Shown in pieces: positions 4,431-4,676 of a stretch of 47,543 bases of DNA. Made by a program: the position numbers and the translations under genes. The stretch lies in assembly GCA_026338065.1 (NCBI GenBank), contig JAPKXI010000028.1, forward strand, positions 1 through 47,543, read 5' to 3'. The notes beneath the pieces are model-generated. The model saw only the letters and a list, made by a program, of their open reading frames with translations. It searched no databases and was not told the DNA's origin. Each line of letters starts with the position of its first letter. Within the stretch, counting starts at the first letter, position 1. This stretch comes from Lachnospiraceae bacterium. GTDB lineage: Bacteria; Bacillota; Clostridia; Lachnospirales; Lachnospiraceae.

Positions 4431-4676
4431 AGCCAGAGTTTGGAACCTCTTTCTTGCAGCTGTGACTTCGGAGGAAAGTTAGAAGCTCTTAGACTTCTGT
4501 CGATCCACTAGGATTTTTGCCATTCTCGAATGGCAAAAAAGGGGTGTGTTTAGCCCGCTGCACGGGCGAATTGCACCCCGTTCCGTCCGGTTGGATACAC
4601 CCAGACTCAGAAGTCTTAGAGCTTCTTCTTTCCGAAGAGCGGAACAGCTGCAAGAAAGAGGTTCCAAACTCTAGCG
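4431..4676 (+). repeat. Family A structured repeat, copy A1 (full length, about 246 bp)
   Basis: Outer ~30-bp stem ccagagtttggaacctctttcttgcagctg/cagctgcaagaaagaggttccaaactctag, a second 19-bp stem, the conserved hairpin tttttgccat-N6-atggcaaaaaa, and the core ggggtgtgtttagcccgctgcacgggcgaattgcacccc. The same architecture recurs at 10338, 14575, 28253 and 43833. Confidence 0.85.

Follow-up and report, generated by a model that had tools for sequence, protein, structure and literature searches.

TwoAYGGAY (Rfam RF01731) is an RNA motif that has been catalogued since 2010, and the literature consulted gives it no known function. It was described as a three-way-junction fold of ∼170 nt with a 'very large' P1 helix of about 24 bp and few mismatches, and was rated 'probably RNA, not cis-regulatory, not a switch' (Weinberg et al. 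2010, PMC2864571). In Rfam 15 the family gained two covarying pairs, and a 2025 paper refers to it as a relatively unexplored motif among RNAs of unknown function. The RMfam paper of 2014 (PMC4333381) mentions its tandem GAs and proposed that it sequesters CsrA, as the AYGGAY loops match the CsrA binding motif. TwoAYGGAY is also named in the abstract of a bioRxiv preprint of 24 September 2026 ('Coevolutionary mining of prokaryotic non-coding elements with a genome language model', 10.64898/2026.09.22.753630) and occurs 52 times in its text, including as 'TwoAYGGAY element' and 'TwoAYGGAY repeat'. Here, we have analysed family A, a structured repeat noticed by a first-pass annotation in a stretch of 47,543 nucleotides from a Lachnospiraceae bacterium (GenBank assembly GCA_026338065.1, contig JAPKXI010000028.1; the whole stretch is hereafter the window). 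We show that family A is a non-coding interspersed repeat spread through the intergenic DNA of one mouse-gut Lachnospiraceae lineage. We propose that it is a lineage-specific, highly amplified and loop-substituted subfamily of TwoAYGGAY, a reading that, taken in full with the mechanism discussed below, we consider evenly balanced between right and wrong.

Similarity to TwoAYGGAY

When short stretches were searched with relaxed filters, the RF01731 model, whose gathering score is 43 bits, matched the core of copy A2 (4466-4640) at 63.7 bits and copy A3 at 68.2 bits. The first-pass annotation had placed the repeat in no family that it knew and had named a significant hit to an existing Rfam family as the finding that would speak against its proposal; two such hits are what we found. 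The alignment of A2 spans positions 1-168 of the 168 in the model, and A2 has the three-way junction with two hairpins and the conserved junction nucleotides, namely the AG between the hairpins, GCC…GGC near the tip of hairpin 2, CG, and CGUC past the junction. Family A further shares with TwoAYGGAY the very long and near-perfect P1, the tandem G·A joint, a host among the gut Clostridia and the presence of several copies per genome. It differs in its loops, which in the window are UUUUUGCCAU-N6-AUGGCAAAAA and a GC hairpin under an invariant 7x7 internal loop, in having an extra outer helix of 24-30 bp outside the Rfam model together with conserved flanks, and in occurring in more than 150 copies.

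The link between the two is made by a canonical copy in the same genome (locus L004, element 845-1088, scored over 882-1051), which reaches 100.9 bits and carries the loops AUGGAC and AUGGAU. Its hairpin 1 reads GCCGGGC-ATGGAC-GCCCGGC, and the canonical tip of hairpin 2 is GCC-ATGGAT-GGC; the window copies have a UCUCGA-like terminal loop and CUGCA in these places. L004 and the window copies share the joints GTGACTTCG and GAGAGCGGAAC, P3, a long copy-specific P1, the AGCC…GGCG frame of hairpin 2, CCGG, and GTCC followed by a C-rich tail. As the canonical copy shares its joints, P1, hairpin-2 frame and tail with the window copies, we take the window family to be a loop-substituted derivative of TwoAYGGAY. 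In this subfamily, one AYGGAY loop is replaced by a longer AU-rich hairpin and the other by a GC hairpin below the invariant 7x7 loop, and the tandem-GA joint, P2 and P3 with the bulged GGA, the junction, the long P1 and the GTCC tail are kept. What is known is the family; what is new is the loss of the AYGGAY loops, the extreme copy number, two classes of genomic context (types i and ii, below) and the different evolution of the inner and outer helices.

No riboswitch or ribozyme matched A2 at E ≤ 10. Its other Rfam matches were spurious microRNA hairpins, RAGATH-32 far below threshold, and SymR and a viral pseudoknot at E = 4.6-9. The sequences quoted in the first-pass annotation gave only unrelated matches when searched in the original 2010 alignment.

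Fold and conserved parts of the element

We use A2 (+ strand) as the reference for the fold, which as RNA has a predicted energy of -144 kcal/mol (z = -14.3). The outer helix P1 is formed by a 5' arm at 4432-4463 and a 3' arm at 4644-4675; its outer 8 nt (GCCAGAGT) are conserved and its inner ∼22 nt are copy-specific. The 3' arm is followed by GTCC and a C-rich tail (4676-4740). The 5' flank GGAAAAAACA (4422-4431) is also conserved, and on the minus strand, which is the gene strand, it reads as TGTTTTTTCC directly after the P1 hairpin, in the manner of a terminator. P1 is longer in type i copies (30 bp) than in type ii copies (24 bp), and 96-99% of its pairs are Watson-Crick. In the window, its arms are 31-32 nt long and 94-97% complementary, with a separate sequence in every copy, as had been noticed from the sequence at the outset.

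At the base of P1, the 5' joint (4464-4472) consists of GA, CUUC, which pairs with GAAG at 4634-4637, and a bulged GGA, and it is invariant across 112 copies; opposite to it lies AGCG-GA at 4638-4643. Written as two strands, CUGU-GA-CUUC faces GAAG-AGCG-GA-ACAG, which places a tandem G·A beside a bulge, and the joint looks like a k-turn. Inside P1, P2 (GGAAAG) and P3 (TAGAAGCTCTTAGACTTCTG), with their 5' strands at 4473-4499 and their partners at 4608-4633, contribute ∼28 further base pairs. Hairpin 1 (4514-4540) consists of TTTTTGCCAT, the loop TCTCGA and ATGGCAAAAAA, and is where canonical members carry an AYGGAY loop. Hairpin 2 (4541-4579) consists of GGGGTG, the internal loop TGTTTAG/CGAATTG, and CCCG-CTGCA-CGGG; both of its stems co-vary and the internal loop is invariant. 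Four GGA triplets are kept in the window copies, in the bulge, the joint and the junction strands.

Covariation and invariance in the wider copy set

A scan for the core pattern, in one genome per species and with each locus taken as up to 8 kb of contig, gave at least 120 loci, of which 119 came from a mouse-gut metagenome-assembled genome, 'uncultured Lachnospiraceae MGBC128194'. The extracted set holds at least 157 core matches, among them 112 full copies that are all different. A genome of the MGBC128194 type therefore carries at least 157 copies, and many of its contigs break off inside one. Since the window is 99.1-99.25% identical to two MGBC128194 contigs, the two belong to the same species.

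Covariation of the helices, which had been reported from the window copies, was borne out in this larger set. RNAalifold predicts 94 pairs for five window copies, 30 of them with a compensated change on both sides. We then took 36 copies of identical length, which align without gaps, and found that 98.7% of cells pair in the named structure, a value that was reached in 0 of 500 shuffles (85.9% pairing in the shuffled control) and that compares with 44.8-51.5% when the partner strands were slid. Double changes occur at 40 of the 81 pairs, in 378 cells. The compensated hairpin-2 variants quoted earlier (GGCACG/CGTGCC for GGGGTG/CACCCC, and CCTC/GAGG for CCCG/CGGG) are real and recur in other genomic copies, but in the window they sit in copy A5 (28254-28500) and not in A4, to which they had been assigned.

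To the invariance of TGTTTAG/CGAATTG, a hidden Markov model (HMM) search that did not require the core adds only two complete and uninterrupted copies without the exact motif, against 157 exact ones in the DNA examined; one has a single substitution and the other is the canonical relative. As this core-independent search gave only two further copies, the invariance is real and not an artefact of how the copies were collected. Per-site diversity is ∼0 at the joints GTGACTTCGGAG and GAGAGCGGAAC, whose near-invariance had likewise been pointed out, and ∼0 in the internal loop, and reaches 0.3-0.6 in the hairpin loops and at those unpaired positions of the core that vary most. About 110 of 112 copies share one and the same asymmetric joint, bulged GGA and 7x7 loop.

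Two other statements of the first-pass annotation have to be revised. The hairpin TTTTTGCCAT-N6-ATGGCAAAAA, described as invariant, is conserved but variable, about one in five genomic copies having co-varying stem variants such as TTTCGGGCAC...GTGCCCGAAA. Conserved terminal sequences, which were said to be lacking, do exist: about 100 copies agree in the outermost 8 bp (GCCAGAGT/ACTCTGGC) and in the flanks ACA|GC and GC|GTCC. Three internal fragments of the element were found, and there was no excess of 5'-truncated copies. When a pattern of the two joints was scanned over metagenomes, 41 of 42 matches were due to chance and only one (L143) was a true member. An outer helix without a core, which would have indicated that cores enter hairpins already in place, was looked for in 0.85 Mb at sites with GCGTCC or GTGTCC as their end, and none shorter than 140 nt exists there.

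Strand asymmetry of the inner helices

Thermodynamics is uninformative as to which strand folds, as the two strands of A2 fold alike (-144.0 and -143.9 kcal/mol; z = -14 and -16). We therefore counted wobbles in P2, P3 and the small junction hairpin, with invariant wobbles excluded. On the sense strand of the Rfam model, G·U exceeds A·C by 54:13 in type i and 56:2 in type ii copies, or 110:15 in total, although cells counted in this way are not independent events and wobble states may be inherited within subfamilies. At one P2 pair, GC occurs 61 times, GU 29, AU 21 and AC not at all, and one U·G wobble is kept in 103 of 112 copies. The excess of G·U over A·C shows that the Rfam sense strand is the folded strand under selection and, since both strands fold equally well, the asymmetry is evolutionary and not thermodynamic. 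We favour, with some reserve, RNA over single-stranded DNA (ssDNA) as the nature of the folded strand.

Divergence of the outer helix

P1 behaves differently. The 8 outermost base pairs are conserved, and the middle, at 0.45-0.75 in per-site diversity, is close to saturation. Copies with 178-nt cores that differ at only 4-7 nt are ∼45% different (about 10 of 22) in the inner 22 nt of P1. Even so, 98.7% of the pairs in the middle are Watson-Crick, with G·U and A·C about equally frequent among the few mismatches. Correction of quasipalindromes is a known mutational process. As hairpin-templated correction at the DNA level can yield wobble-free pairing that is ∼99% Watson-Crick, the covariation of P1 is not clean evidence of selection on RNA. 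The earlier proposal of selection on a folded RNA or ssDNA therefore stands for the multi-helix fold of one strand and its constrained unpaired parts, and is ambiguous for the outer helix. In the simplest reading of these sequences, mismatches in P1 would be resolved by intrastrand templating, so that the two arms drift together at about the neutral rate, and asymmetric joints and loops would survive only through selection. One copy (L055, around 3427-3550) carries, in place of its 3' joint, the exact complement of its 5' joint, so that the joint is symmetrised. In another copy (L052:473-719), the arms of the outer helix are mismatched in their middle part, and a hybrid or recombinant origin is suggested.

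Copies in the window and their genomic context

A repeat finder run on the 47.5-kb window recovered the inverted arms within copies and, at the six places given by the first-pass annotation, five full copies and one partial copy, all intergenic. The partial copy A1 (1-41, + strand) is a 3' end that holds the 3' joint GAGAGCGGAAC and the 3' arm of the outer helix, with its GTCC tail at 42-45; the copy is complete in the syntenic contig L053. A2 (4432-4675, +; type i) is antisense to a minus-strand gene (4738-6525) and lies 63 nt past its stop codon. A4 (14579-14823, +; type i-like) and A5 (28254-28500, +; type i) lie 148 nt past the stop codon of an M32 peptidase gene and 40 nt past that of a histidine kinase gene. 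A3 (10339-10573, −; type ii, with a P1 of 24 bp) is co-directional with its neighbouring genes, is flanked by ATTGTGGAAAAAGACA on the 5' and GTCCTCCCC on the 3' side, and has a sigma-70-like promoter downstream at 10297-10268. A6 (43834-44067, −; type ii) lies 132 nt upstream of addB, with which it is co-directional. The neighbouring genes are unrelated to each other and of housekeeping kind (NAPRTase, PilM/FtsA-like, PolA, CoaE, QueH, M32 peptidase, histidine kinase, RuvAB, AddAB). The window copies are 80-90% identical pairwise, and 82% identical per column over five copies. Copy lengths vary by 1-6 nt and overlapping open reading frames (ORFs) are due to chance only, in agreement with the statement that no reading frame is conserved; the repeat is non-coding.

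Type i copies are flanked by GGAAAAAACA on the 5' side and by GTCC and C-rich sequence on the 3' side, often as locus-specific tandem units that each start with GTCC. Of 54 type i copies, 33 have a neighbouring gene that runs towards their 3' end; this holds for each of the four in the window, which lie 36-148 nt past the stop codon. On the strand of the gene, TGTTTTTTC follows the P1 hairpin, and this terminator-like hairpin has a folded domain of 180 nt as its loop; a separate, conventional terminator lies past A2 at 4402-4381. The 3' flank of A4 holds three units of a C-rich 34-nt tandem repeat (14838-14940, +), of which other strains have 3-5. Many other type i 3' flanks (e.g. L117, L114, L006, L042 and L028) hold locus-specific tandem repeats of 17-36 nt in 2-5 copies. 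The repeats set in precisely at the base of the outer helix; GTCC(C/T)C opens each unit, and the final ∼11 nt of the helix arm are part of some units.

Type ii copies are flanked by ATTGTGGAACAATACA on the 5' side and by GTCCTCTTTGG and T-rich sequence on the 3' side, and the gene on the 3' side is co-directional in 26 of 29 copies. Sigma-70-like promoters lie 40-60 nt beyond the 3' end of several of them. As these promoters lie beyond the 3' ends, type ii copies are situated between transcription units and not in 5' untranslated regions (UTRs).

Spread and history

Copy A4 is near-identical in four other strains, making five strains in all. Three sister species, whose QueH is 85%, 85% and 78% identical, keep the gene order PBP–NUDIX–M32–QueH (two have PolA further downstream, and one has zf-HC2 ahead of PolA), and no family A copy is present in these three loci at the A4 site. 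Their M32–QueH spacers are 145, 120 and 127 nt long, compared with 549 nt in the window. One of the sister species (L174) has, at the A4 site, a short hairpin that resembles the outer arm of P1 and is followed by a T-run; it could be a remnant or a proto-site. At the A3 site, the same species keeps both upstream terminators and the promoter TTGCAA-17-TAGAAT, and lacks ∼330 nt that correspond to A3 and another repeat piece. As the sister species are without copies at these sites and all five strains carry A4, the expansion is specific to the lineage and not ongoing at the strain level.

The source of the copies was also looked for. Phage or plasmid origin was rejected after searches of viral contigs, a phage collection and a plasmid collection gave no matches. 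All-against-all clustering of the 1017 ORFs of the loci and the window returned ordinary paralogue families and spurious ORFs inside the repeat, and a scan of the same ORFs for reverse transcriptase (RT) motifs found none. A DUF7677 gene of ∼109 aa adjoins the canonical copy (L004:466-810, −) and occurs in loci L125-L130, with 65-89% identity across Lachnospiraceae, Cellulosilyticum, Flavonifractor and Ruminococcus. In Cellulosilyticum it lies in a prophage, directly upstream of the phage small terminase gene, and many DUF7677 contigs are very short. It was rejected as a partner, as the homologues in Cellulosilyticum, Flavonifractor and Ruminococcus have no TwoAYGGAY nearby, and its place beside L004 is judged coincidental.

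Neighbouring repeats and other features of the window

Two further repeat families were seen. Family B is ∼140 nt long with copy-specific, perfect arms of 25-31 bp, and occurs in the window at 24613-24769, 25383-25526, 35789-35935 and 36343-36489, and also at L001:2347-2486, L038 (∼4977-5003), L067 and L119. Its core measures 78 nt by the repeat finder, with 99 alignment columns identical in all four window copies, and is flipped relative to the flanks in the copy at 25383-25526 when compared with the other three. The termini of family B are those of family A (…ACA|GC … GC|GTCC), and its Rfam matches are microRNA hairpins below threshold only. Family C (1627-1786, 25259-25338, 31511-31635 and 36163-36276, with inverted pieces at 10637-10670 and 44183-44212) has the hairpin GGAAGTCCCCC…GGGGGACTTCC and the end CTTGATAGGTTAAAA, and often lies 100-150 nt upstream of type ii copies, beside family B. 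Four tandem units of 52-53 nt, 75-77% identical, at 35918-36127 are part of a 1.2-kb non-coding stretch that also carries two copies of family B and one of family C.

Several genes of the window are of separate interest. The minus-strand gene at 1902-4340 encodes an 812-aa protein with the 'shoulder' domain of the major vault protein (E = 1e-22) and a vault repeat, which is unusual on a Lachnospiraceae chromosome. A tmRNA gene (32678-33043, −; 160 bits) and two tRNA genes (32581-32654, − and 10898-10980, −) are present. The start of the ORF at 32165-32659 is probably called too far upstream, as the ORF overlaps the tRNA gene at 32581-32654; its HPr domain starts at residue 84. A short ORF (46011-46559, +) has a weak IstB-like (IS21 helper ATPase) match to the C-terminal third of the profile (E = 1e-7); it is a possible insertion sequence remnant and the sole transposon-related signal in the window.

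Discussion

More than 150 diverged copies and one canonical copy in one genome amount to a natural experiment on TwoAYGGAY. Change is tolerated in the sequence of the outer helix, in the hairpin loops and even in the AYGGAY loops that gave the family its name. It is not tolerated in the tandem-GA joint, the bulged GGA, the junction strands and the 7x7 loop, which makes these parts a candidate recognition surface. We argue that the folded sense strand could be read through its invariant unpaired parts (joint, bulge, internal loop and junction strands) by a putative partner needed for the persistence or spread of the element. P1 would need only to be a perfect duplex, with arms that drift at about the neutral rate, and hairpin-templated (quasipalindrome) correction of the DNA, aided by selection, would be the main process that keeps them complementary. 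Copies would persist where their harm is small or a use exists, and may be tolerated or co-opted at the ends of transcription units: in type i, the hairpin and T-run could read as a terminator on the gene strand, and type ii copies have terminators upstream and promoters downstream of them. The machinery that mobilises the copies would act in trans. Among these four parts, direct support from the sequences is confined to folded-strand recognition and to the maintenance of the palindrome at the DNA level.

Several observations weigh against this reading. Two of the four window copies tested, A4 and A5, have no Rfam match at E ≤ 1e-3, and an Rfam run in gathering mode over the whole window gave no TwoAYGGAY match. 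As A4 and A5 went undetected and the whole-window run missed A2 and A3, the subfamily lies at the edge of what the RF01731 model can reach. The standard run over 47.5 kb dropped, through its speed filters, two copies that score 20-25 bits above threshold; since such filters remove above-threshold copies, elements of this kind are probably under-annotated in gut genomes. The AYGGAY terminal loops themselves are absent from the window copies, and cmscan skips both model loops. As to the nature of the folded strand, G·T is the most tolerated mismatch in ssDNA too, and tandem G·A is stable in DNA. No conserved sigma-70 promoter was seen upstream of either type and, as type i copies are antisense to their neighbours, the selected strand may never be transcribed at type i loci. 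As to mobility, the five strains show no difference in presence or absence at the A4 site, no recurrent gene, transposase or RT was found near the copies in 0.8 Mb around at least 157 of them, and no direct repeat is evident at the boundaries that would indicate a target-site duplication, the only alignable empty site (L174) being too diverged for boundaries at the level of single bases. Finally, the preprint 10.64898/2026.09.22.753630 may describe another mechanism.

The first alternative is a purely DNA-level selfish element of the MITE (miniature inverted-repeat transposable element) or foldback kind, in which a transposase encoded at another place recognises the tips …ACA|GCCAGAGT … ACTCTGGC|GTCC, the helices are kept complementary by intrastrand template switching during replication, and the folded strand has no function. 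The first-pass annotation had argued against a MITE-like element; that argument is weak, given that the tips and flanks are conserved, that there are at least 157 copies from a lineage-specific expansion, and that the syntenic sister species lack the copies at the A3 and A4 sites. A DNA-level origin would also fit a P1 that is ∼99% Watson-Crick without wobble bias at near-saturated divergence, the symmetrised joint of L055, and a family B that puts the same ACA|GC…GC|GTCC termini around another core. We consider it unlikely all the same. The 110:15 excess of G·U over A·C in the inner helices is not predicted by a mechanism acting on double-stranded DNA, and correction by template switching should erase asymmetry, yet the joint, the GGA bulge and the 7x7 loop are invariant. 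Moreover, neither a target-site duplication nor a transposase near any copy was seen, and the fold matches an RNA family model with a three-way junction.

The shared termini of families A and B also lead us to a bolder idea, which we hold as a long shot. TwoAYGGAY-type elements may be one cargo of a novel kind of mobile 'hairpin vehicle' in bacteria, with conserved tips, a long, copy-specific and perfectly paired stem and swappable structured cores, in which one arm is regenerated from the other by fold-back templating at every round of copying and a ribonucleoprotein (RNP) or ssDNA-binding enzyme, acting in trans, recognises the folded core and is the mover. The tips would be GGAAnnnnACA|GC … GC|GTCC, and the cargo either the TwoAYGGAY core, as in family A, or an unannotated core, as in family B.

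It is also conceivable that the elements serve the host in cis, like REP/BIME or ERIC sequences, with a giant hairpin that ends or insulates transcription units and protects the 3' ends of mRNAs, and a conserved core that is the binding site of a host protein. The type i copies of the window, at 36-148 nt past stop codons and with P1 followed by TGTTTTTTC on the gene strand, would suit this role, as would the position of type ii copies between upstream terminators and downstream promoters, the stability of copies across five strains, and the simple terminator hairpin that a sister species has at the A4 position. However, the wobble-biased strand is opposite to the gene strand in type i, an ordinary terminator is already present past A2 at 4402-4381, a gene converges on no more than 33 of the 54 type i copies, and the sister species manage without the elements. 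As a plain hairpin is enough for termination, the invariant loop and junction would be left unexplained, and we regard a role of this kind as improbable.

That the element is the template or partner RNA of an RT, copied into ssDNA, with the dispersed copies as products or substrates in a retron-like or SINE-like manner, is quite improbable. The layout of retrons, in which a long variable hairpin stands beside a conserved structured part, speaks for such a relation. Indirect hints also come from the 2026 preprint, whose text has 'reverse transcriptase' 14 times, 'ssDNA' and 'defense' 5 times each, 'cryo-EM' 4 times and 'retron' twice, and in which 'recombinase', 'nuclease', 'endonuclease', 'TnpA', 'HUH', 'CsrA', 'retrotranspos-' and 'mobile genetic' do not occur; these words may belong to unrelated passages, for instance on benchmarks or probing methods. 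Against it, no ORF with an RT motif was found in the loci of at least 157 copies or in the window, 5'-truncated copies are not in excess (the incomplete pieces found being three internal fragments), and the copies have no A-tails and no flanking duplications.

A small RNA that titrates CsrA is hardly credible for the window copies: the 2014 proposal, the assignment of TwoAYGGAY to Rfam clan CL00106, the two GGA loops of L004, which adjoins cheR, and the four GGA triplets kept in the window copies all favour it, but it is precisely the two terminal loops with GGA that the window copies have lost, and more than 150 copies without a promoter of their own are unlike the organisation of sponge RNAs. 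In the 0.85 Mb examined, which is only part of the genome, neither csrA nor ybxF was seen. As the AYGGAY loops are lost, a CsrA sponge is unlikely to be the core function of the family.

We return to the loop-substituted TwoAYGGAY subfamily as the preferred reading. Since the inner helices are wobble-biased and the outer helix is wobble-free and hypervariable, selection on the folded strand can be separated from maintenance of the palindrome at the DNA level. It follows for other elements that covariation in long inverted repeats should not automatically be counted as selection on RNA.

Besides TwoAYGGAY itself, four groups of known systems invite comparison. ERIC, Correia/NEMIS, bcr1 of Bacillus cereus and RUP are likewise non-coding elements of 100-250 nt with tens to hundreds of intergenic copies and long inverted repeats with compensated changes, and occur in either orientation and often in 3' UTRs. 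They are, however, single long hairpins with terminal inverted repeats and target duplications, whereas family A has a multi-domain fold, a wobble bias on one strand and no recognisable target duplication. REP/BIME sequences of Enterobacteria are high-copy, palindromic and intergenic, lie at gene ends, can act as terminators or mRNA stabilisers, and are mobilised in trans by a single-copy enzyme. They differ in being simple hairpins of 20-40 nt with a GTAG head and a link to RAYT, neither of which was seen with family A. Retron msr/msd combine a conserved structured part with a long hairpin of free sequence, bracketed by inverted repeats, but family A has no adjacent RT, hundreds of copies, and no conserved branching-G context that we could identify.

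The Csr/Rsm sponges (CsrB and RsmY/Z) form the fourth group, and CL00106 is the Csr/Rsm clan. Like these sponges, canonical TwoAYGGAY presents GGA in hairpin loops. The sponges are single genes driven by promoters, whereas the subfamily described here is dispersed through the genome and its terminal loops are without GGA.

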